NCBI GenBank assembly: GCA_964365025.1
Contig: CAYIOJ010000003.1
Coordinates: forward strand, 1 to 49,594
Direction of reading: 5' to 3'
DNA length: 49,594 nt
Origin: an uncultured Gammaproteobacteria bacterium
GTDB taxonomy: Bacteria > Patescibacteriota > Patescibacteriia > Magasanikbacterales > UBA10003
Every line of letters begins with the position of its first letter. Position 1 is the stretch's first letter. A program made the translations under genes and the position numbers. The notes under the pieces are model-generated. The model did no database searches. It was not told the DNA's origin and saw only the letters and a list, made by a program, of their open reading frames with translations. Of this stretch, positions 5,389-49,520 are shown one piece after another.

Positions 5389-6465
5389 ATGTCTTTATCA
5401 ATAGGCATTGTCGGCTTGCCCAATGTGGGCAAGTCAACTTTATTTAAAGCCCTAACCAAAAAGCAGGCTCTGATTGCCAATTATCCTTTTGCCACCATTG
5501 ACCCGAATGTCGGCATAGTGGAGGTGCCGGACAATCGTCTGGCCAAATTGGCCGAAGTTTCCAAGTCGGATAAAATCGTGCCGACTGTTATTGAGTTTAC
5601 CGACATTGCCGGATTGGTCAAAGGAGCTAGTCAGGGTGAGGGTTTGGGTAATAAATTTTTATCGCACATTCGCGAAGTGGCGGCCATTGTGCAGGTGGTG
5701 CGCGCGTTTTCTGATCCGGATGTGATTCACGTGGGCGGCCGCGTCAATCCGCAGGAGGATTTGGAAATTATTGGCGTGGAATTGGCTCTGGCTGATTTGG
5801 AATCGGCAAAAAAATATTTGAGCAATTTGAAAAGTAAAGCAAAATCCGGGTCAACTGTTGCGTTGGAACAAGAAATGAAACTATTTGAGAGAGTTATTGA
5901 CTCGTTGAGTAAAGGGCAGGCTATTAGAGACCTGTCTTTGAGCGATGATGAAAAAAAATTGATTAAAACATTTAATTTTTTAACCGCCAAACCAATGATG
6001 GCGGTGTTAAATGTTGACGAGGCCGGTGGCGCCAAACAGCCGGTCCCTCAATTGAATTTTAATGGTCCGATTATTGAAATTTCTGCCAAAATTGAGGCGG
6101 AATTGGCAGATTTAAGTCCGGAGGAGGCTAAAGAATTTTTAACTTCCATCGGCCAAAGTCAGACCGGTTTGGATAAATTAATTTTGGCCGGTTATAGATT
6201 ATTGGATTTGATTACTTTTTTAACTTCCGGGCCGATGGAATCGCGCGCTTGGACTGTGGAGAGCGGCGCTAAAGCGCCGCAAGCCGCCGGCGTGATTCAT
6301 TCTGATTTTGAAAAAGGTTTTATCCGCGCCGAAGTTTGCGATTATGATAATTTTGTGAATTTCAGCGGTTGGGCCAAAATTAAAGAAACTGGCAAAATGC
6401 GTTTAGAAGGCAAAGATTACGTGATGCGCGATGGAGATGTGGTGTTTTTTCATGTGGGTAGTTAA
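5389..6465 (+). CDS. ychF: ribosome-binding ATPase YchF (Obg-family GTPase)
   Basis: [24 protein letters not shown]-loop, [12 protein letters not shown], and a C-terminal TGS-like segment. The start was moved to ATG 5389 because the track start 5338 overlaps the tRNA. Confidence 0.9.
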
Positions 6466-6491
6466 AAAGAGCGGCTTAGCCGCTCTTTTTT
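6465..6491. terminator. bidirectional hairpin between convergent ychF and the methyltransferase gene
   Basis: aaaagagcgg-cttag-ccgctctttt followed by T residues. A-run on one side and T-run on the other. Confidence 0.6.
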
Positions 6492-7651
6492 AGTTTCACG
6501 ATCTCTCTCCCCACTTTTTGATCCGGTCGGGCATAAATAAGCGTACCGCGTGATGTTTGAAATTGACGGAAAATCGGAGAGAAAAAAGGTTCAATGCGCA
6601 AATTTAGCGCAGCCAATTTTTCCGGCAAAGGTAAAAAAAATCTTTGTTGCAATATCGGCCAAATCATTATTATTACCCCGTTTGGTTTTAAAATTTTGAT
6701 AAATTCGCGCAAACTAGCCGTGTATAGTTGAGTCAGTTCATCAACTGTTTTTTGCAGCCGCTCTTTTGTTTCACGGCCTCTCAAAGGCGGGCCGAGAAAT
6801 GGTTCGGTCACAATGGCATCGGTGGAATTGGCGGAAAAGCATTTTGAAAGCAATATGGCATTGCATTTGTGAATTGGCGCGGTTTTTAATTTTAGCCAAT
6901 CAATATTTTTTCGCGCGTCGGCAATAGCTTTGTCACTCACGTCGCTTCCCAGCACATTTTTATATTCCATAAGCATGGCTTCGGTCAAAATTGTGCCCGA
7001 GCCGCAAAAAGGGTCTAAAATCACCGCTTCGGTGCCTTTTTCCGCCAGATTTATCATTATTTTGGCTAATTTCGGCGGCAACATGCCGGAAAATTTGTCC
7101 CGCCCGGGCCGGCCGTAATCGCGTTCGCTAAATTCCGCAAACGGCTGTATAGCCAAAGTTTCCCCCAACCAGATTTGATTTTTATCCCCGGCAATGATTA
7201 TTTCCAATCCGTTGGCGTTTAGGAGTTTGTTTGTTTTGATAACCACAGAGGACAAGACTTTTTCTCGCGAGCTGACAAACCGCGCTTTGGCGCCACCGTT
7301 TACCAATTCTTTTTTAATTTCCAATCCCAATGTCGGAAATTTGCCAATGTAGGCGCTGATGCCGAAAAAGATTTTTTTATCCGTCGTTTTTTTCGCGATT
7401 AAATCCAATATGTTTTTTTTAAAATCAATTGATTCAATTTTTCCCAGTTGTTTTTTTACTTCGGCTATTTTTATAGTGCCGCCCAGTTGATTCATTATTT
7501 TTCCCGCATTAATTTTCGGGGCGATATCCAAAATCAGTGTTTCTTTTTGCCAAAAAGAAACTAGATAATCAATTTTTAATCTGCCGAACAAAGAAAAAAT
7601 TTCAGCCGCTGACAATTCCTGTTCGCGGCCAAGAATGAAAATATATTGCAT
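6476..7651 (-). CDS. SAM-dependent methyltransferase, UPF0020/Trm11-like (probable RNA N-methylase)
   Basis: Motif I ILDPFCGSGTILTEA and a motif IV-like VTEPFLGPP. The N-terminal ~180 aa are a non-catalytic domain. Confidence 0.6.
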   Translation of the reverse strand: MQYIFILGREQELSAAEIFSLFGRLKIDYLVSFWQKETLILDIAPKINAGKIMNQLGGTIKIAEVKKQLGKIESIDFKKNILDLIAKKTTDKKIFFGISAYIGKFPTLGLEIKKELVNGGAKARFVSSREKVLSSVVIKTNKLLNANGLEIIIAGDKNQIWLGETLAIQPFAEFSERDYGRPGRDKFSGMLPPKLAKIMINLAEKGTEAVILDPFCGSGTILTEAMLMEYKNVLGSDVSDKAIADARKNIDWLKLKTAPIHKCNAILLSKCFSANSTDAIVTEPFLGPPLRGRETKERLQKTVDELTQLYTASLREFIKILKPNGVIIMIWPILQQRFFLPLPEKLAALNLRIEPFFSPIFRQFQTSRGTLIYARPDQKVGREIVKLKKSG

Positions 7652-7983: not shown

Positions 7984-8500
7984 AAACTTCCGCTTTTAAA
8001 GTCATATTGATTGAGTAAGAGGCGTCGCGACTTAAGTTGATTTCTAAAATGGATATAAGGTAGTCGCTGCGCTCCAGGGCGTCCAAATATGACAACAAAT
8101 TGACAAATTCTCCCTGCGCGTCAATTTGCAGGTCAATTTTATCAGCGTCCACGCCTTTCATCTTATTGGCGCGCGAGATATTTATTTTTTGGCTAATGGA
8201 AAATTTATCCGCTAGATTTTCCAAATAGGAAATGAATTTTATTTCTTCTCCGTTTTTTATAAACAGCAATTTTAATTCTTCGGTCGTTTGCTTGGCCAAA
8301 GCCAGAATATTTTGCGATTTATGAAGATAACGAGTTTTTTCGTATTTGGCCTCCAAAGAAGTGCGTAATTCCAAAATTTGTCGGTTCATTTGTTGGATAC
8401 TGCGATATTGCGGGAAGATGATCAATCCGCTGATCAAGAAAAAAAATACCAAAATGCCGCCGGTAATGTAAATCAATTTTTTTTCATGGCTTTGGAACAT
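7970..8500 (-). CDS. pilO: PilO-like type IV pilus assembly protein
   Basis: N-terminal TM helix plus a coiled-coil segment. Position directly after pilM and pilN. No strong sequence motif, so the call rests on context and architecture. Confidence 0.5.
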   Translation of the reverse strand: MFQSHEKKLIYITGGILVFFFLISGLIIFPQYRSIQQMNRQILELRTSLEAKYEKTRYLHKSQNILALAKQTTEELKLLFIKNGEEIKFISYLENLADKFSISQKINISRANKMKGVDADKIDLQIDAQGEFVNLLSYLDALERSDYLISILEINLSRDASYSINMTLKAEVYVQN

Positions 8501-13022: not shown

Positions 13023-13580
13023 TTAGTCGGCAAAGACCCAGACGTGGCCGGGTTCAGAGTACTGGCCAGTCGGGTCATCGTAGTCAAGGTCGTTGCGGCC
13101 GGCTCTGGTCAGCGACTCCTTGGATAGATCAATGATTACTGGCCCACCGCTATTGTCCATGGCCACAATCCAGGTGTAGCCAATGCCATCGGGCAATTGT
13201 TTGCCGCAAGCCCTGGCAACTACACCGCACTCTTTCAGCAAGATGAAAAGCAGGGCGTGGTAGTAGCGGCAGCAGGCAATTCCCCAGGCCAGCGCGTAAG
13301 ACAAATTTCTCTGTGCCTCGGTAGGTTTGTGGACAAAGGCACGACAGTAATCCAGTTCTTGTTGGGTCTCGGCAGTGCTTTTGAGCAGTACGGCATTTCT
13401 GAACAAGGATGCCAGTACTTGTTCTTTGGCGACCGCGATGCGATCATTCAAATGGGGCATACTACGCCATTCTCCGGCGCGTCGGCAAAGATCCCGCAGA
13501 GCTTGGCCGTCATCAAGAAACACTCCGCAGATATTGGCTTCGCGCCAGTCCCTATTTACTGTGTGCGTTACGAATCCCAC
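13023..13580 (-). CDS. hypothetical protein in a high-GC patch (GTG start, strong SD)
   Basis: 185-aa ORF preceded by gaAGGAGaaggcc-GTG, with its own terminator. The ORF track shows 5 overlapping ORFs here, which indicates stop-codon-poor, GC-rich DNA. The segment GIACCRYYHALLFILLKECGVVAR faintly resembles a transglutaminase-like Cys core. No confident family call. Confidence 0.6.
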   Translation of the reverse strand: MGFVTHTVNRDWREANICGVFLDDGQALRDLCRRAGEWRSMPHLNDRIAVAKEQVLASLFRNAVLLKSTAETQQELDYCRAFVHKPTEAQRNLSYALAWGIACCRYYHALLFILLKECGVVARACGKQLPDGIGYTWIVAMDNSGGPVIIDLSKESLTRAGRNDLDYDDPTGQYSEPGHVWVFAD

Positions 13581-16664: not shown

Positions 16665-17156
16665 ATGTTTCGCCGATGGTTCATTTGGTGCTTGGCGCTG
16701 GTGGTTCTGGGTGGCGCGACAATTACTTGTGCTGACTATGGCGCGGAAAAAAACCAATCCAAGGTCAAAATCCAAAGCGAGATTATCGCCGCCAAGTACG
16801 ATTACGCGGTGGTGGAGGATGTCACCCCCTCCAAGCGCCAGATCAGTGATCTGGAAATTGTTTCCTTCTTGAATGATGACGAAAGTTACATCAATGGCAC
16901 GGTGATGCGCGTCCGCGCCGTCATCCTCAAGGCCAACCTTGGCCTTGTTGACGCCAAACGCCTGCTGGACAACCAGGAGGAAATTCCGGTTGAATTCAGA
17001 AGCAAAGTGCTCGTCTTTACCGGCACACTCCTCCGCGATTCCGGCGGCCGCCTGCATGTCGCCTGCCTCTACTGGGGTGGCGGCCGTTGGTGCTTGCGCT
17101 TCGACTGGATTGACGGCGGCTTCTTCGGCGCCTGCCGTCTCCTCCGCGGTAAGTAG
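16665..17156 (+). CDS. hypothetical secreted protein in a high-GC patch (strong SD)
   Basis: ctAGGAGGaatatc-ATG. N-terminal signal-like segment FIWCLALVVLGGATITC. Trp/Gly/Cys-rich C-terminus. Four overlapping ORFs in the track mark GC-rich DNA. Followed by a 14-bp-stem terminator. Confidence 0.6.
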   Translation: MFRRWFIWCLALVVLGGATITCADYGAEKNQSKVKIQSEIIAAKYDYAVVEDVTPSKRQISDLEIVSFLNDDESYINGTVMRVRAVILKANLGLVDAKRLLDNQEEIPVEFRSKVLVFTGTLLRDSGGRLHVACLYWGGGRWCLRFDWIDGGFFGACRLLRGK

Positions 17157-22884: not shown

Positions 22885-22964
22885 ATCTTATGAAAAAATT
22901 GATTATAAAATAGTGAATAACAAAATTTTTCTTCCTTATAAAAAATAAATTTTCTGTGTTTTTT

Positions 22965-23360
22965 GCACAATGGGCGGCGGATATGCGACGTCCCGTCCGG
23001 ACGAAAACAGAGTTTTCGGACGGGCGGGATGTAGCGAAGCGACGCATATCCGACAGTTCGGCGATGTCGCGAAGCGTAGCGAGCGACAGAGCAAGAACTG
23101 GCGGGCACCGCCGCCCATTCGGCAAAACGAGGAGGAGTCCGCGAGGACTCCGACGAGAGCGAGCGGAGCGAGCGATTTTGGCCAACGTATCCGAGTATGC
23201 GAAGCCGCGCCGTTGTTTTCAACACAAACTTTCGCTTTCAGATGATTGTATTTTATCATTTTAAGCCCTCAATTTCAATAGCGCGGTTTGGGTGAAGAAA
23301 ATAGCGATACCTTATTAAAAGTTAAAAATTTATCGCTATTTTCTGAACCGCATACTCGGT
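22965..23360. other. high-GC, palindrome-dense non-coding segment (candidate large structured RNA or cluster of REP-like elements)
   Basis: Perfect long-range complements: 22969-22980/23108-23119 (12 bp), 23191-23201/23349-23359 (11 bp), 23296-23308/23332-23344 (13 bp). Local hairpins include ggagtcc-GCGA-ggactcc (23134-23151). Every frame is open, but none has a start/RBS context. Confidence 0.4.
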
Positions 23361-23361
23361 G

Positions 23362-23423
23362 TTATCGGATGTAAATTATTTTCATTTTCGATTTTCGTCA
23401 TTTATTAAAAGGCAAATTTTGAT
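23362..23423. repeat. left arm of a ~62-bp imperfect inverted repeat (partner 25823..25885)
   Basis: ttatcggatgtaaattattttcattttcgatttt... matches the reverse complement of 25852-25885 at 32 of 34 positions. Similarity continues with small indels (aaggcaaattttgat versus aaggcgaattttgat). Confidence 0.85.
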
Positions 23424-23428
23424 TCCAC

Positions 23429-23479
23429 TTGGCGGGGGCGCAAGAGGGGAATAAAAGGGGTGAATTGCGCCCCCGCCAA
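23429..23479. other. 15-bp perfect GC-rich stem-loop just inside the left inverted repeat
   Basis: ttggcgggggcgcaa (23429-23443) and ttgcgcccccgccaa (23465-23479), with a 21-nt G-rich loop. Confidence 0.8.
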
Positions 23480-23490
23480 TCCGTTTATAC

Positions 23491-23544
23491 AAAATGAAGA
23501 AGGCCAGCGGTACTTTTCCGATTTCTCGGAATTTCCCGCTGGCC
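23491..23544 (-). terminator. probable terminator of the high-GC two-gene operon
   Basis: The minus strand reads GGCCAGCGG...(inner CCGA-gaaa-TCGG)...CCGCTGGCC followed by TTCTTCATTTT. It begins 19 nt after the stop at 23563. Confidence 0.5.
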
Positions 23545-23562
23545 CATGTGAGTTGGCCTGCT

Positions 23563-24168
23563 TCAGAGTTGAACCTCCTCCGCAGGCACGAATGCGGCGC
23601 TGTCGACATGCCCGCATGTCCAGTGTCCAGTCTGGATGAAGCCGACAAGCACGTACTTCCTTCCCCGGAATTCCATGACTTCGCCCAGCTCTCGCGGCAT
23701 GTGCCATCGGCCGCGTTCCTCCGGCGGAAGAAAACCGCGACTGTCAGCCCTCGGCCACGAGCGAGTCTTCTCCTCGTTGAGGAGCCACGCCCGAATCTCC
23801 GGCGGCTGAACCGGTTCCTCCTCTCCGTAGTAGATGGAAACCGTCAGTCCCAGGGCTTTGGCCCCCGGAACCCACCACCACTCGATGGTGGAAGTGAAAT
23901 CGAGCGGATCCCGAGCGTCTTTGTCCTCGACCACTGCCCTCCGCGCAATGTCGAGGAGCGTCGGTTTCTTGGCCGCCGTGCTTTTTTCCTCCATAGGTTT
24001 CTCCTCTGTTGGCTGGTGCGGAGGATTTTGCTGGCACATGCATGTCGGCGCCTGCACGGGCATCGTGGCCCTGCATCTCCCCATGTGCTCCTCATACTGA
24101 CGTCGTTTCTTCGGATACTTGTCTGCGCCTGCCGACAGTACGGACTCCTCATACCATGGCCGCGACAT
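23563..24168 (-). CDS. hypothetical protein (high-GC operon, gene 2), no recognisable family
   Basis: 201 aa from ATG 24168, preceded by caaaacaAGGAAGGAGGcaaaa. Normal amino-acid composition, in contrast to the Arg/Pro/Leu-rich antisense ORFs. 22-nt spacer to the upstream gene. Confidence 0.65.
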   Translation of the reverse strand: MSRPWYEESVLSAGADKYPKKRRQYEEHMGRCRATMPVQAPTCMCQQNPPHQPTEEKPMEEKSTAAKKPTLLDIARRAVVEDKDARDPLDFTSTIEWWWVPGAKALGLTVSIYYGEEEPVQPPEIRAWLLNEEKTRSWPRADSRGFLPPEERGRWHMPRELGEVMEFRGRKYVLVGFIQTGHWTCGHVDSAAFVPAEEVQL

Positions 24169-24190
24169 TTTTGCCTCCTTCCTTGTTTTG

Positions 24191-24733
24191 TTAGTCACCC
24201 TCGACAAGCACGCTGTATCCACCCCATTTTTCCACGGCCGCTTTCAACTCGACGTTCTGCTCGCGGCTGAAGATATCTCGGCCTTCGGCGCCCTGAATGG
24301 TGCAAGTGATGCATCCGAGCATGCCGAGTTTCACCCACACCATGTGGATATCGATCCTGTCGATCGCCCACAGCCTGGCGTAGATTTCCTGCTCTCGGTA
24401 TCCCGGGCAGTACTCTACTATGCAGTGAGAGCTTTCCAAGCAACCGGCATACGGAGCGGCACTCCGGTATTTCTTGCAGTTCTTTGCCGGTCGGAATACC
24501 CACAAACCATTCTCGTTCATGTCGAGGTGAAAGGATTCCCCAATTCTGTCGTTTGGCCAGTCAGCGCACCGGACCGTGACGAAGGCATGCCGCCAATCGT
24601 CACCGTTGCGTTCTTTTCCGCTGCTTTCTTCTGCTTGCACCACATACCCCGCGGCTTCAAACTCCTTCTTGACTTTCTCCGGTTGTTGCGCCGCGTAGGT
24701 CGTGTGAAAACGGTAGCAGATGTCCATGCCCAT
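24191..24733 (-). CDS. hypothetical Cys-rich protein (high-GC operon, gene 1), no recognisable family
   Basis: 180 aa from ATG 24733, preceded by caaacaAGGAAGGAGacaaaaa, nearly the same RBS context as gene 2. Contains 9 Cys, including CLESSHCIVEYC and CITC. Confidence 0.65.
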   Translation of the reverse strand: MGMDICYRFHTTYAAQQPEKVKKEFEAAGYVVQAEESSGKERNGDDWRHAFVTVRCADWPNDRIGESFHLDMNENGLWVFRPAKNCKKYRSAAPYAGCLESSHCIVEYCPGYREQEIYARLWAIDRIDIHMVWVKLGMLGCITCTIQGAEGRDIFSREQNVELKAAVEKWGGYSVLVEGD

Positions 24734-24911
24734 TTTTTGTCTCCTTCCTTGTTTGTTAAAGAGCCCCGTCTTCCTCCGCACCCATTACGGAGTTTAGACA
24801 AGTCAATGTACCAAATAAACCAGATTTGTAAATACTATGCGTCAGAGAAAATGGTGAAATATGCGCGAATAAGCCAAAATAATAAAATAAAATATAAATT
24901 GTAAGTAATCA

Positions 24912-24940
24912 TTGACACAATGTAGCCTTTGTGATATGAT
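24912..24940 (+). promoter_or_regulatory. sigma70-like promoter of the TrmB-family regulator gene
   Basis: TTGACA (24912-24917), 17 nt, TATGAT (24935-24940). ATG at 24976. Confidence 0.55.
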
Positions 24941-24975
24941 GGAAATGTATAAATTAGCATTTTAAACACAAACAT

Positions 24976-25764
24976 ATGGCAAACCTAATCGACGATCTCG
25001 GTTTAGACGAAAACGAAGCAAAAGTATATCAAGCACTTTTAGAGATTGGGCCTTCTACGGTTAGCCAAATAACAAAAAAAGCGGGTATCACCCGCACCTT
25101 TGGTTATCAGATTTTGGAAAAATTGAGTATTTACGGATTGGTCAATCGTGTTTCTGGCGAAAGGGTAAAAATTCGCTATGCTGCGGAACATCCGCGCCAT
25201 TTGGTGCAATTTATCCAAAACCGCAAAAACCAATGGGAGAGGCGGCTTAAAGATGTTGAACAACGTCTGCCGGATTTAGTTTCACTTTTCAAAGTCGCGG
25301 AAAAACCAATCATAAAATATCAAGAAGGAATTGAAGGTGTAAAAACTATTTACAGCCAAACCCTTGAATCAAAAGAAGAAATTTTATCTATTTTGGATAT
25401 TGAAGGTTGGGATGTGCCGGAATTTCGGCAATGGGGAAGAGAATATAATCGACAACGCAGTGAAAAGAAAATCAAAGAGCGGATACTTATGCTTGATACT
25501 CCGCAAGGCCGTGACTGGATGAAAAATTATCGCGGGTCTTTCAAATACACGTATTGTCGCTGGATAAAATCAGAACAGTTGCCTGGAATTAAAGAGTTTG
25601 GCGGCGAAATAAACATTTATGAAAACAAAGTTGTGATTGCGCTTTTGAAAAAGACTAATTTGATGGGAGTAATGATTGAAAGCACGGCCTTGGCAAACAT
25701 TTTGAAAGGATTGTTTGAGTTGGCGTGGACGCAAGGGGTGGAAGCAAGAAAAAGTAAAAAATAA
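24976..25764 (+). CDS. TrmB-family transcriptional regulator (wHTH plus C-terminal sensor-like domain)
   Basis: LGLDENEAKVYQALLEIGPSTVSQITKKAGITRTFGYQILEKLSIYGLVNRV is a typical TrmB N-terminal wHTH. Total length 262 aa. Confidence 0.8.
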   Translation: MANLIDDLGLDENEAKVYQALLEIGPSTVSQITKKAGITRTFGYQILEKLSIYGLVNRVSGERVKIRYAAEHPRHLVQFIQNRKNQWERRLKDVEQRLPDLVSLFKVAEKPIIKYQEGIEGVKTIYSQTLESKEEILSILDIEGWDVPEFRQWGREYNRQRSEKKIKERILMLDTPQGRDWMKNYRGSFKYTYCRWIKSEQLPGIKEFGGEINIYENKVVIALLKKTNLMGVMIESTALANILKGLFELAWTQGVEARKSKK

Positions 25765-25771
25765 AAAAAGC

Positions 25772-25797
25772 GTCCCGCCCGAATATACGGGCGGGAC
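25772..25797. terminator. GC-rich hairpin after the TrmB-family gene (bidirectional shape)
   Basis: gtcccgccc-gaatatac-gggcgggac, preceded by an A-run. Confidence 0.6.
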
Positions 25798-25822
25798 ACC
25801 ATATTTCCCCTAATCAAAAAAT

Positions 25823-25885
25823 ATCAAAATTCGCCTTTCCTTATTCAAATAAAAATCGAAAATGAAAATAATTTATTTCCGATAA
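25823..25885. repeat. right arm of the ~62-bp inverted repeat (partner 23362..23423)
   Basis: aaaatcgaaaatgaaaataatttatttccgataa (25852-25885) is the reverse complement of 23362-23395 with 2 mismatches. The inner part aligns with indels. Confidence 0.85.
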
Positions 25886-26119: not shown

Positions 26120-26157
26120 GTTTCTATTTTTTATCATTTTTAATAAAGAAATGAAAT
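26120..26157 (+). repeat. 38-nt direct repeat, copy 1 (abiEi upstream region plus first codons); copy 2 at 28724..28761
   Basis: gtttctattttttatcatttttaataaagaaatgaaat versus gtttccgttttttatcatttttaataaaaaaatgaaat: 35 of 38 identical. Confidence 0.85.
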
Positions 26158-39099: not shown

Positions 39100-39852
39100 T
39101 TATTTAATTTCATCAAAAGGCAGAGAACCAATCATTGCCGCGATAGATTCATTATTGATTTTCCTGGAATAATATATTTGATTCATTTCCATTTCTTTTT
39201 GCGCGCCAACTATCATCCAGTTATTTTTAATGTTGGCTTTGGTGAGAGGTTTCCGTATTTCTTTTTGTTTGATGTAGCTCACAATTTCGTTCAAATTCAG
39301 TTGGTACTTTTTTAAAATAAGAAACAAATCATAAAAATCACGATAGCGGGCGCGGTCATTTGTGGCTCGGATTTTTTCCGCGCAGATTTCTTTGATGTCC
39401 ATAACTCTCACCTCCAATTTGATGCCCCAAACATTGTTGTATTTCATGGTTTTAGGCGGTAAGAGCACATTCTGCAAAAAATCAATTTCAACTTTTAAAG
39501 AGTTTGGCTGAATCAGCGGTCCGGTATATTGCAGTCGTTCGATCTTTATTGTCGCGTCGGAGAGGTAATCTTTTTTAATGCTCAAATAGTATGTGTCAAT
39601 GAAAATCTTTTGTACCTCTTCCAAAGATATTGTTTTTTGATTGGCGGAAAAATCTAAATCTTCGGAAAAACGGTATTGTTCCAAATAGCAGTGATGTAGA
39701 GAGGTACCGCCTTTGAATATTAAGGTGTTCTTGAGGGTGGATTGAGTAATGATTTGGATTACGAGAGCGAGAAAATAGTCCTTCTCGGCAATTTGGAGCG
39801 GATACTTTAAGGTTCGGCGATTAATAATTTCCAATTGTTGGCGGGTGATCAT
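39100..39852 (-). CDS. abiEii: AbiEii/AbiGii-family nucleotidyltransferase toxin (second copy, divergent sequence)
   Basis: FKGGTSLHHCYLEQYRFSEDLDFS signature. 4-nt ATGA overlap with the upstream antitoxin gene. Confidence 0.85.
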   Translation of the reverse strand: MITRQQLEIINRRTLKYPLQIAEKDYFLALVIQIITQSTLKNTLIFKGGTSLHHCYLEQYRFSEDLDFSANQKTISLEEVQKIFIDTYYLSIKKDYLSDATIKIERLQYTGPLIQPNSLKVEIDFLQNVLLPPKTMKYNNVWGIKLEVRVMDIKEICAEKIRATNDRARYRDFYDLFLILKKYQLNLNEIVSYIKQKEIRKPLTKANIKNNWMIVGAQKEMEMNQIYYSRKINNESIAAMIGSLPFDEIK

Positions 39853-40628
39853 AATTTGAATTGATCAAAATATCCGTCGTAATAAAGACGCCATTTAGCA
39901 TTGAATTTTTTATCACCAGCGAGCATCCAATGAGTGCCCCGTTTATTTTTTATGAGTTCATGCAAGCGAACAGAATCAAGGCCTAAAAAATCAAAGATGA
40001 GACCAAAAGTTTTAATGGTAGCGCCGGAAAATTTAGATAAGTATTCGTTGAAGCGATTAAAATCCAAATCCCGTTTATGATTTATAATTTTTTCAATCAC
40101 CACATCAATCGTCAATTTGCTTTTATGAAAATTCACCATATCAATCAAGGCCTTTTCCGCGGTGGCAATCCGCGCCGTTTTATTATCCATTTGTACTTCG
40201 TCAAAACCAAAATACAAGTTCTTTTTAGTTTTAACAAAGCTGTATTCCATATTATTGAGTTTTGTGGCTTTGTACATTTTCAAGCTGACCGAGACGGTTT
40301 TATTCATTAATTGGTCAAACATGCTGTGGTATTGAAGAGCGGACTCAAAAGAGACATAGGAATCTTTGACTAACAAATTGGCTGTCAGATAGGGTGATAG
40401 AGATAGAAAGCCGCGGTTCGTTAATTCAGAAATGGTGTAGAGTCCGCGTTTAATTCGAATCAGCCAACCGTCCTTGGTAAGTTTAGTAATGATGTTTTTG
40501 GTTTGCTTGTAATCCCAACTGCCCTTGCTTGTCTCAATAATTTGCCTCGAAGTAACAATAAGGCCAAATTTGCCGATTAAATTTTCTAATAATTCGCTTT
40601 GTTTAACGGAAAGGATAGTTTGTTTCAT
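39849..40628 (-). CDS. abiEi: AbiEi-family antitoxin (second copy)
   Basis: ...LTKDGWLIRIKRGLYTI wHTH end motif. 259 aa. Coupled to abiEii. Confidence 0.7.
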   Translation of the reverse strand: MKQTILSVKQSELLENLIGKFGLIVTSRQIIETSKGSWDYKQTKNIITKLTKDGWLIRIKRGLYTISELTNRGFLSLSPYLTANLLVKDSYVSFESALQYHSMFDQLMNKTVSVSLKMYKATKLNNMEYSFVKTKKNLYFGFDEVQMDNKTARIATAEKALIDMVNFHKSKLTIDVVIEKIINHKRDLDFNRFNEYLSKFSGATIKTFGLIFDFLGLDSVRLHELIKNKRGTHWMLAGDKKFNAKWRLYYDGYFDQFKL

Positions 40629-48779: not shown

Positions 48780-49520
48780 TTATGCGCTATAATTTTTTTT
48801 GTTCAATTGCCAACCTATTTTTGAAGGATAATCTTGCTTTATATACGGTCGTTTATTTTTGTTCTTCCATTTTAAAAATTTTTGATATTTACGAGTTAAA
48901 AACAGAGATGCTCCTTTTTTATACATGAATTGGAATAATTTTTCGCAATCATCAATATAGAAATAAATAGAGTATGTATTTATGTGTGTTTTTCTTTTAT
49001 CAATATTTTTGTGAATGGTTTTTGTTGGAATACTTAAATTTTGGCAGAGTTGTTTATTAAACGAAGTGATAAAAGATAGACTGGAACTTATAAACCCCGC
49101 TTTGATTTGTGGAGTGTTATTCACTGTATAGATGTAAACTGTGCCGTCGCCATCAAAAAAACCACGAGTAAAATCTGCGAAATATTTTTGAGGGACGCTT
49201 ATTTGTTTCAAATTATAAGTTTTTCGCGGGTATATTCCTAAACTAATTAAATCTTCAGCTAAAGTCAAATTACGAATTTGTATCTGGAAACCAACACCAT
49301 TTCTACCGTTTGTTTTTTTACCGATTTTGTGTTTTGATTTTAGTATTTGTCTCAACTTGTATAGATGTTTTTTGTCAATAGAAGTGATGTTGAGAGTAAA
49401 CGGATTTTTCTTTCTATCCTTGCTAATTGCGATACAGCCGTCAGCGACGATATATCCTAAAAGATAGCTCATTTCTGGTGTCCAAATTTTAAATATTTTG
49501 TCATTGAGCATATTTATCAA
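48780..49520 (-). CDS. free-standing double-motif LAGLIDADG homing endonuclease-like protein
   Basis: Two LAGLIDADG motifs: LLGYIVADGCI and FTRGFFDGDGTV. 246 aa. Not embedded in a host ORF or in a recognisable intron. Confidence 0.8.
   Translation of the reverse strand: MINMLNDKIFKIWTPEMSYLLGYIVADGCIAISKDRKKNPFTLNITSIDKKHLYKLRQILKSKHKIGKKTNGRNGVGFQIQIRNLTLAEDLISLGIYPRKTYNLKQISVPQKYFADFTRGFFDGDGTVYIYTVNNTPQIKAGFISSSLSFITSFNKQLCQNLSIPTKTIHKNIDKRKTHINTYSIYFYIDDCEKLFQFMYKKGASLFLTRKYQKFLKWKNKNKRPYIKQDYPSKIGWQLNKKNYSA

Follow-up and report, generated by a model that had tools for sequence, protein, structure and literature searches.

An arm-bounded accessory module with a TrmB-family regulator and exchangeable GC-rich cargo in groundwater bacteria of the Candidate Phyla Radiation

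Organization of the locus

The stretch of DNA analysed here (contig CAYIOJ010000003.1, positions 1 to 49,594, of GenBank assembly GCA_964365025.1; this whole 49,594-nt stretch is referred to below as the window) was deposited under the name of an uncultured Gammaproteobacteria bacterium and is placed by GTDB in the Magasanikbacterales, within the Patescibacteriota or Candidate Phyla Radiation (CPR). It carries a small module in which two GC-rich genes (A and B, the cargo) are transcribed divergently from a gene for a TrmB-family regulator, the whole being bracketed by inverted repeats that we term arm L and arm R (Table 1). Our analysis indicates with high confidence that these repeats are real and mark one copy of a recurrent element, which is probably a member of a horizontally spreading family of accessory modules. 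From left to right its frame consists of an outer hairpin (outerL), arm L, the hairpins hpL and hp2, the cargo, a control region, the TrmB gene, the hairpin hpR and arm R. An initial annotation of the sequence had taken the interval to run from arm to arm; the arms stand but the extent does not, as the conserved unit begins approximately 180 nt further to the left, at the outer hairpin, while its right boundary is the outer end of arm R.

The 34-nt cores of the two arms are complementary at 32 positions (94%) and a second block (23408-23423 and 25823-25838) matches at 15 of 16, giving arms of about 62 nt with a divergent middle, as originally described. At three or fewer mismatches the 34-mer has only these two sites in the window, and it was matched in none of 100 dinucleotide-preserving shuffles. 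A high-copy repeat resembling repetitive extragenic palindromes or miniature inverted-repeat transposable elements (REP/MITE-like) was considered and rejected, since the 49.6 kb contain just two good copies and species-representative genomes have one or two each. The GC-rich hairpins reported inward of each arm were also found again. The hpL motif recurs in 22 dispersed copies with covarying GC-rich stems and a conserved 21-nt loop, GAGGGGAAYWAAAGGGGTGAAT (the window and comparison loci or contigs, which are labelled L001, L002 and so on: L006, L008, L009, L014, L017, L019 with three copies, L021-L024, L034, L035, L037, L039-L041 and L043), and has no Rfam entry. Read on the sense strand of the cargo, the loop is UUCACCCCUUUUAUUCCCCUC and is similar to the 3' end of 16S rRNA. 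On the opposite side, hpR is predicted to be a strong terminator of transcripts that come into the module from its right side and is conserved in L014, L019, L021, L023, L024, L039 and L041. The outer hairpin contains an inner hairpin (23291-23349, 28-nt arms) and has at its start a degenerate, inverted remnant of an arm end ('site0'); it is 83-91% identical in L017, L023, L024 and L041, and the pairing of its closing stem is kept by compensatory changes in L014, L019 and L022. An Rfam scan of the window and the locus gave no match, with two sub-threshold chance hits on the hpR terminator only.

The cargo stands out by its composition, GC reaching 55-63% across 23500-24750 vs 30-42% in the surroundings, and the GC content at third codon positions (GC3) being 0.69 in A and 0.71 in B vs 0.38 in the TrmB gene and 0.36-0.43 in the neighbouring genes. 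An assembly chimera as the origin of this GC-rich insert was rejected, since independent assemblies repeat its junctions and other genomes have the same architecture. The coordinates of both leftward open reading frames (ORFs) are as first described, and A and B are real coding genes, with substitutions relative to L001 that cluster at third codon positions (23/18/44 by codon position in A, with 34 synonymous and 35 non-synonymous codons, and 9/11/36 in B). That neither belongs to a recognisable family also holds, with no match for A or B in Pfam, NCBIfam, PADLOC, PHROG, PDB sequences or a PDB profile search, and no hit to PADLOC defence models at E<=0.1. Among 5.8 billion clusters, A has a single homologue (81%, L001) and B has 13. 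An exhaustive HMMER search with A of 1.84 billion representatives revealed no convincing homologue beyond that of L001; two repeat-protein hits, matched in 5-9 stretches, were judged spurious. A profile search with the B alignment added three proteins of 383-409 aa (P0014, P0015 and P0016) with the B domain at the C-terminus, none of which has a Pfam match and whose N-terminal region, from residues such as LLIIDDGDE...DLILLD, looks like a receiver (CheY-like) domain. AlphaFold2 models of B (predicted local distance difference test score, pLDDT, 45 from 9 sequences) and A (pLDDT 35 from 2 sequences) were both unusable.

Assignment of the rightward gene to the TrmB family is borne out by Pfam TrmB (PF01978; 57.4 bits vs a cutoff of 25.6; 1.3e-15) and by P. 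furiosus TrmB (PDB 3QPH), which matches over residues 10-139 at E = 1e-5 and nowhere outside residues 4-140. The NCBIfam TrmB equivalogs, which are sugar sensors, score 16-28 bits against cutoffs of 500-650, and the C-terminal 120 aa have no match in Pfam or PDB searches. Orthologues that are 67-89% identical are present in eight loci from GTDB species-representative metagenome-assembled genomes (MAGs), which are assigned to different CPR classes.

Promoters are predicted on both strands of the control region, in agreement with the divergent transcription proposed earlier, and comprise a TTGACA-17-TATGAT promoter for TrmB (24912-24940, + strand, 11/12) and a cargo promoter (24832-24805, - strand, 9/12). 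The similar ribosome-binding site (RBS) contexts of A and B correspond to a 21-nt repeat (24168-24188 and 24734-24754, 95%). Two boxes within the control region, TTTGTAAATAC (24826-24836) and TGTAAGTAATCATTGACACAA (24900-24920), are near-invariant in an alignment of 14 TrmB upstream regions, and the promoter boxes TTTGTAAATA and TGTAAGTAAT-N-ATTGACACAA are found again around unrelated cargo genes. A conserved hairpin lies in the cargo 5' leader (~24760-24800, - strand); it is a candidate regulatory RNA element that is kept ahead of different first cargo genes. Its pattern, CUCCG-N9-CGGAG and then GAAGAC, is the same whatever gene follows, and is also seen in L001, L002, L005, L007, L023 and L027.

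Table 1. Features of the module and its immediate surroundings (positions in the window)
Feature	Position	Strand	Description
Degenerate third arm-core copy	22936-22969	+	27 nt, 70% complementary to arm R; oriented like arm L
GC-rich structured non-coding patch	22956-23195	+	61% GC
Outer hairpin block, outerL	23184-23361	+	Closing stem 23191-23201 / 23349-23359
Arm L	23362-23423	+	34-nt core 23362-23395 (TTATCGGATGT...), inner block 23408-23423
hpL hairpin	23429-23479		Perfect 15-bp GC stem, conserved 21-nt loop GAGGGGAATAAAAGGGGTGAAT
hp2, intrinsic terminator of the cargo operon	23491-23545	-	Stem GGCCAGCGG / CCGCUGGCC, U-rich tail
Cargo gene B	23563-24168	-	201 aa; C-terminal ~135-aa domain conserved, N-terminus variable
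Cargo gene A	24191-24733	-	180 aa, 9 Cys; orphan
Divergent control region	24734-24975		Cargo RBS repeat, leader hairpin, two promoters, conserved boxes
TrmB-family regulator	24976-25764	+	262 aa; N-terminal winged helix and dimerisation helix
hpR hairpin	25769-25800	-	13-pair stem, then TTTTTTTATTT
Arm R	25823-25885	-	34-nt core 25852-25885, reverse complement TTATCGGAAAT...

To the left of the module, the degenerate third copy of the arm core sits ahead of the GC-rich structured patch, whose predicted fold (-139.6 kcal/mol) has a z-score of -8.7 on the + strand vs -4.4 on the - strand and which has no Rfam match at E<=1. Homologous pieces of this patch adjoin arm cores in L022 (378-398, opposite strand) and L036 (607-676). 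The patch may be a separate small insert beside the arms, perhaps outside the module, and may represent a novel structured RNA or mini-insert.

Recurrence of the frame with different cargo

Gene B is divergent from an orthologous TrmB gene of ~261 aa in every B contig that was examined (L001, L002, L003, L005-L009), and the flanking genes of this TrmB-B module are different in each locus. The space between the two can be empty (L003, L006, L007) or occupied by A (window, L001), by a 125-aa gene (L001, L002) or by a 157-aa gene (L005). The two-gene operon of the initial annotation is therefore correct as a description of adjacent GC-rich genes and incorrect as a fixed pair, B being a recurrent TrmB partner, linked to the regulator in every examined B locus, and A an orphan add-on that accompanies it in the window and L001 only. 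In every locus the GC3 of the cargo is 0.55-0.92 vs ~0.4 for TrmB and the host. Three modules with TrmB paralogues lie in tandem in L002 (5339-10414) and carry separate GC-rich cargos (a 47-aa peptide in one, a 240-aa protein in the next, and the 125-aa gene and a B homologue in the third), and the first two cargos are followed by a direct repeat of ~110 nt (6440-6580 and 8370-8500) that starts CCCAGCGG, like hp2.

The frame also recurs around cargo unrelated to B, and this, together with the constant TrmB-B linkage, is in keeping with the earlier proposal of a regulator-controlled accessory module. L023 and L024 have the full frame of the window with an unrelated 155-172-aa orphan as cargo, and the full frame of L041 encloses two radical-SAM/SPASM genes and a TrmB paralogue of 32% identity. 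In all of these full frames, as in that of the window, it is the cargo side to which the outer hairpin is attached. In L017, from another Hainich well, the left flank, arm L and hpL are as in the window and are followed by a different GC-rich cargo. A second type of arm-bounded module (L022, L034, L037, L043) encodes a Fic protein with a TrmB-like winged helix together with a small GC-rich gene, and in L039 (GC3 0.92) and L045 the arms enclose GC-rich cargo alone, with no regulator. Cargo with a family match elsewhere includes an AMP-ligase with a methyltransferase, a HAD hydrolase and a protein resembling the C-terminal domain of the RNA-polymerase alpha subunit (alpha-CTD). The terminator-like 44-nt hairpin hp2 (GGCCAGCGG...CCGCTGGCC) is kept 3' of unrelated cargo genes in L001, L003/4, L005, L007, L014, L022, L023, L024, L027, L037 and L041.

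The arms are not private to the window, as exact-pattern scans returned 31 non-redundant copies of the arm core on ~20 CPR contigs, with one or two per genome, from MAGs labelled Parcubacteria, Falkow-, Magasanik- and Kerfeldbacteria and from groundwater metagenomes. Searches of viral contigs, plasmids and phages gave no match. The two mismatches between the cores of the window represent a conserved distinction between left (GGATGT) and right (GGAAAT) copies. L-type cores carry GGATGT, with the variant GGATTT in L034; an outer hairpin ending CCGCATACTCGGTG lies before every one of them and hpL comes after, while R-type cores carry GGAAAT in nearly all copies, have outer flanks that are unrelated between loci and are mostly followed by hpR. 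In L022 the 34-nt core alone is in common, both sides being different. The outer end of the arm is defined, TTATCGG, and in many copies conserved sequence ends there at (G)TT. Inverted arms were also found in L022, L023, L024, L039, L041 and L045, and in L019, L021 and L022 a short hairpin segment lies between two arms, with alternating site orientation. Adjacent arms and an outer hairpin together form a long palindrome that is foldable as single-stranded DNA. The TrmB module or arms also occur in MAGs labelled Lutibacter or Gammaproteobacteria (L008/L025, L027, L028, L039, L040), which is probably due to mis-binning or mislabelling and would otherwise mean transfer outside the CPR.

Movement between genomes and the role of the arms

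The clearest case of movement is a unit of 1,985 bp that is 95% identical between L023 (2928-4907; a 654-kb contig of a MAG labelled Saccharibacteria) and L024 (2138-4115; a MAG labelled Magasanikbacteria). Homology stops exactly at the outer end of arm R (...ATTTCCGATAAC) and starts where a 12-nt stretch repeats the arm R end (ATTTCCGATAAC) in direct orientation, ~190 nt beyond arm L, with unrelated flanks on both sides and no target-site duplication at the ends of either copy. A near-identical unit in unrelated flanks and without target duplication shows that the unit moves horizontally, and this, with the presence of arms in many CPR genomes, supports the non-autonomous mobile cassette suggested initially. 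A difference in position between relatives is also seen at recA and efp, between which L001 carries the module and the window a GC-rich orphan alone.

Contigs of six other assemblies from Hainich well H51, retrieved through exact copies of the flanking HD and AbiEi proteins, were used as a population check. All are collinear with the window, contig L047 through both arms and L048 and L051-L053 through at least one. The empty-site alleles that the initial annotation had proposed to look for were absent from the collinear contigs. Several short contigs end at 23423-23484 or 25815-25856, which at a coverage of only 3-6x is weak evidence; these ends could reflect graph branching, that is population variation at the boundaries, or low coverage of AT-rich or hairpin DNA. 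Contig ends within ~250 nt of an arm or hairpin were also observed in L011-L013, L048, L054, L055, L015, L019, L021, L038, L040 and L044.

Genes with a Phage_integrase domain are encoded close to arms or to the regulator in several genomes: at 90 nt from an arm in L023 (outside arm R), ~105-150 nt in L044 and 0.8 kb in L024, at 2.8 kb from the arm of a Fic module in L034, and at 1.1 kb from a TrmB orthologue in L026. The recombinases near the shared unit in L023 and L024 (270-274 aa) are 44% identical to each other at the protein level. Both score above the cutoff of the NCBIfam XerA 'tyrosine recombinase/integron integrase' equivalog (235 and 246 bits vs 220) and below that of the integron integrase TIGR02249 (209 and 229 bits vs 265, matched in two stretches); they also score against DNA-invertase models, and in the PDB they match IntI4 and P. 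abyssi XerA best.

On balance, we lean towards the interpretation that the interval is a member of a family of accessory modules that spread horizontally among CPR bacteria of the Magasanik-, Falkow- and Kerfeldbacteria type, bounded by specific sites and mobilised in trans. Its core would be an insulated platform, with a TrmB-family repressor (or a Fic protein with a TrmB-like winged helix) divergent from a conserved promoter and 5' leader, and this promoter would drive swappable small GC-rich, mostly orphan genes closed by hp2. The boundary blocks would be the outer hairpin, arm L and hpL on the left and hpR and arm R on the right, with inverted cores that have two fixed differences. The arm cores would be the sites of a tyrosine recombinase resembling XerA and integron integrases, which some genomes encode next to an arm or a TrmB orthologue and which would be supplied in trans, and the modules would be exchanged between genomes or positions in the manner proposed for Acinetobacter dif modules (PMC6449649, PMC13141974). 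TrmB may bind the repeated TGTAARTA boxes that overlap both promoters and repress the cargo, holding the payload off until a signal arrives, and hpR and hp2 may insulate the unit transcriptionally.

Several observations weigh against this interpretation. No recombinase or transposase is encoded in the interval, as had been noted from the start, or anywhere in the 49.6-kb window, and the recombinase genes near arms elsewhere may merely be the housekeeping Xer of those genomes. The core has an imperfect dyad, ATCGRAAAT / ATTTYCGAT, with a spacer of 5-11 depending on register, which is weak and not significant as a fold; it falls in the general class of tyrosine-recombinase sites sought by others (PMC2958812) and is unlike the canonical 11-6-11 dif layout of that study. 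None of the six H51 assemblies showed an excised circle, an empty site or an inverted allele. The left block has covarying stems that would equally suit an RNA role. Finally, the TrmB-B loci L001, L003 and L005-L009 are without any arms, and the platform can therefore exist or relocate in their absence. As to a role of the arm as chromosomal dif of the window genome, this is unlikely, since the GC skew is positive to the left and to the right of the locus, with no switch there, and the arms are therefore not a terminus dif site.

Some of the same data fit an alternative that we consider unlikely though credible, namely that the arms, the outer hairpin, hpL and hpR are structured RNA or protein-binding boundary elements and not recombination sites. 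They could be insulators, terminators, small RNA or 3' untranslated region elements, or distal operators for the TrmB-type winged-helix protein of the module, and the modules would spread by DNA uptake and homologous recombination with the conserved blocks as homology patches. The covarying stems and conserved loop of the 22 hpL copies, the covariation in the outer hairpin and the strong inward-facing terminator hpR agree with such a role, as do the TrmB-like winged helix encoded by both module types, the many TrmB-B loci without arms and the single orientation in the population, and the type IV pilus-like genes and RecA of the window would suit uptake and exchange (functions from gene order, with Pfam for RecA only). 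However, boundary elements of this kind account poorly for the sharp homology breakpoints at the outer end of arm R next to unrelated flanks, for the 12-nt direct repeat at both ends of the L023/L024 unit and for the 34-nt core that alone is common in L022. The recurrence of tyrosine recombinase genes beside arms, the regulator-free arm-bounded modules L039 and L045 and the lack of an Rfam family also argue against them.

Less likely again is a CPR-specific gene-capture system that is distinct from both integrons and dif modules, in which the palindrome of two arms and an outer hairpin would fold in single-stranded DNA that these naturally competent epibionts have taken up and be recombined by a XerA/IntI-like enzyme. 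Both attC sites and the CTX phage attP hairpin are recombined as folded single-stranded DNA. Here the junction of two arms and an outer hairpin would be a palindrome of ~200-300 nt with the conserved L/R mismatch, and foreign GC-rich genes, possibly derived from hosts, would be placed behind a TrmB-gated promoter, leader and terminator.

We give little credence to a non-autonomous transposon, in which the arms would be terminal inverted repeats (TIRs) served by a DDE or other transposase encoded elsewhere. The inverted arms with their defined outer end, the same element in different contexts and an IS200-type Y1 transposase gene that adjoins the TrmB-B locus L007 would be expected of one, but the L023/L024 copies lack target-site duplications, their common unit starts outside arm L at a direct and not an inverted copy of the arm end, the fixed L/R distinction and long attached hairpins are unlike simple TIRs, and no transposase is near any examined arm-bearing locus. 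The invertible, phase-variable segment offered in the initial annotation, with a recombinase flipping the 2.4-kb interval between the arms to switch expression, is very improbable: inverted sites do bracket a promoter-containing segment, tyrosine recombinases that score against DNA-invertase models do sit near arms elsewhere and several short contigs do end at or just inside the arms, but both promoters, both terminators and all three genes lie inside the arms so that inversion would change nothing obvious, the outer hairpin is on the cargo side in all full frames, and the single orientation of six independent, collinear assemblies makes a switch unlikely.

The module that we interpret as site-bounded and mobilised in trans lies in a chromosomal context in the window (FtsK, RecA, EF-P, SSB). 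Its neighbourhood is rich in toxin-antitoxin-type genes (26151-27564, 28203-28632, 28969-29916 and 39100-40628), including two AbiEi/AbiEii pairs (the one at 26151-27564 also identified by PADLOC), a HicA-like pair and a Fic protein, according to Pfam labels from contig L047; neighbours elsewhere include AbiE (L019), a DNA methyltransferase-like gene (L021) and HigB (L001). Two window orphans with no Pfam match lie between housekeeping genes, one at 16665-17156 (+, GC3 0.71), which fills the efp-recA slot where L001 has its TrmB module, and one at 13023-13580 (-, GC3 0.60). A free-standing LAGLIDADG endonuclease ORF (48780-49520, - strand, 246 aa, 30% GC) adjoins ORFs of 126 aa and 336 aa at the end of the window.

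Relation to known systems and significance

Accessory genes bounded by oppositely oriented XerC/XerD sites are known as dif (pdif) modules in Acinetobacter (PMC6449649, PMC13141974, PMC9947245). Like these, the CPR modules are small and discrete (0.6-2.5 kb) and lie between short, inverse, imperfectly palindromic sites, the orientation of which alternates along arrays (L019, L021, L022); an identical module is found in unrelated contexts without target duplication (L023/L024), the recombinase is encoded outside the module and the neighbourhood is rich in toxin-antitoxin genes. Unlike dif modules, they are chromosomal, among housekeeping genes, and not on Rep_3 plasmids, with no plasmid match, and their boundaries consist of 62-nt arms and hairpins, far above 28 bp, with a core that departs from the 11-6-11 layout of XerC/D sites. 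Only one enzyme, XerA/IntI-like, is associated with them, and their exchangeable GC-rich cargo comes with a regulator and an expression platform that are conserved.

Integrons consist of an integrase, IntI, an attI site and gene cassettes that are each closed by a palindromic attC. The CPR cargo is similarly small, mostly orphan, compositionally foreign, swappable and closed by an imperfect palindrome (hp2), IntI4 is the solved structure closest to the neighbouring recombinase, conserved sequence ends at (G)TT and the arm junction forms a foldable palindrome. In contrast to integrons, the recombinase is without the IntI-specific insertion and below the integron-integrase cutoffs, each module has a single cargo operon and no array of cassettes in the same orientation, this operon is served by a regulated promoter of its own and not by a shared Pc, hp2 acts as an ordinary intrinsic terminator, and the arm sequence does not fit the R'/R'' consensus (GTTRRRY).

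XerS/difSL and XerH/difH are single-recombinase modules, integrative mobile elements exploiting Xer (IMEX) integrate at dif, and elements integrated by Xer recombination are bounded by direct copies of one site half. A recombinase gene ~100 nt from the putative site in L023 and L044 resembles the former arrangement, and the L023/L024 unit, bounded by direct copies of one site half, resembles the latter elements. The window locus differs from all of these in that it is not at the terminus, has no nearby xer and belongs to a family with two or three sites per locus. With regard to the regulator, the N-terminal winged helix and following helix match those of P. furiosus TrmB (3QPH), and as in TrmB-family sugar-responsive regulators the gene is divergent from its presumed target operon, with conserved repeated boxes overlapping both promoters; unlike the sugar sensors, its C-terminal half is without a match to the sugar-binding domain and the target genes are not those of sugar metabolism.

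The module thus works most like a dif module, with some integron-like traits, and lacks defining features of both; it also falls short as a TIR transposon, there being no target duplication, and as an invertible switch. The arrangement was not described in the literature that we searched on TrmB, integron/attC, XerA/dif and tyrosine recombinases in Patescibacteria or CPR, and the family is a previously undescribed one of ultra-small groundwater CPR bacteria.

CPR bacteria, which are host-dependent and have very small genomes, account for a large part of bacterial diversity, and to our knowledge almost nothing is known of how they acquire and control accessory genes. The locus points to a standardised and portable 'expression slot', consisting of regulator, promoter, leader, terminator and conserved bounding sites. 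Its contents are compositionally foreign and differ widely from genome to genome, and the slot passes between CPR lineages that are only distantly related. An unexplained signal on the origin of these genes is the cargo GC3, which stays at 0.7-0.9 next to an AT-rich regulator even where copies have diverged. If the arms are indeed recombinase sites, the logic of dif modules and integrons would extend to a major uncultivated radiation, and the 34-nt core would provide a sequence handle for cataloguing the mobile gene pool of CPR bacteria.

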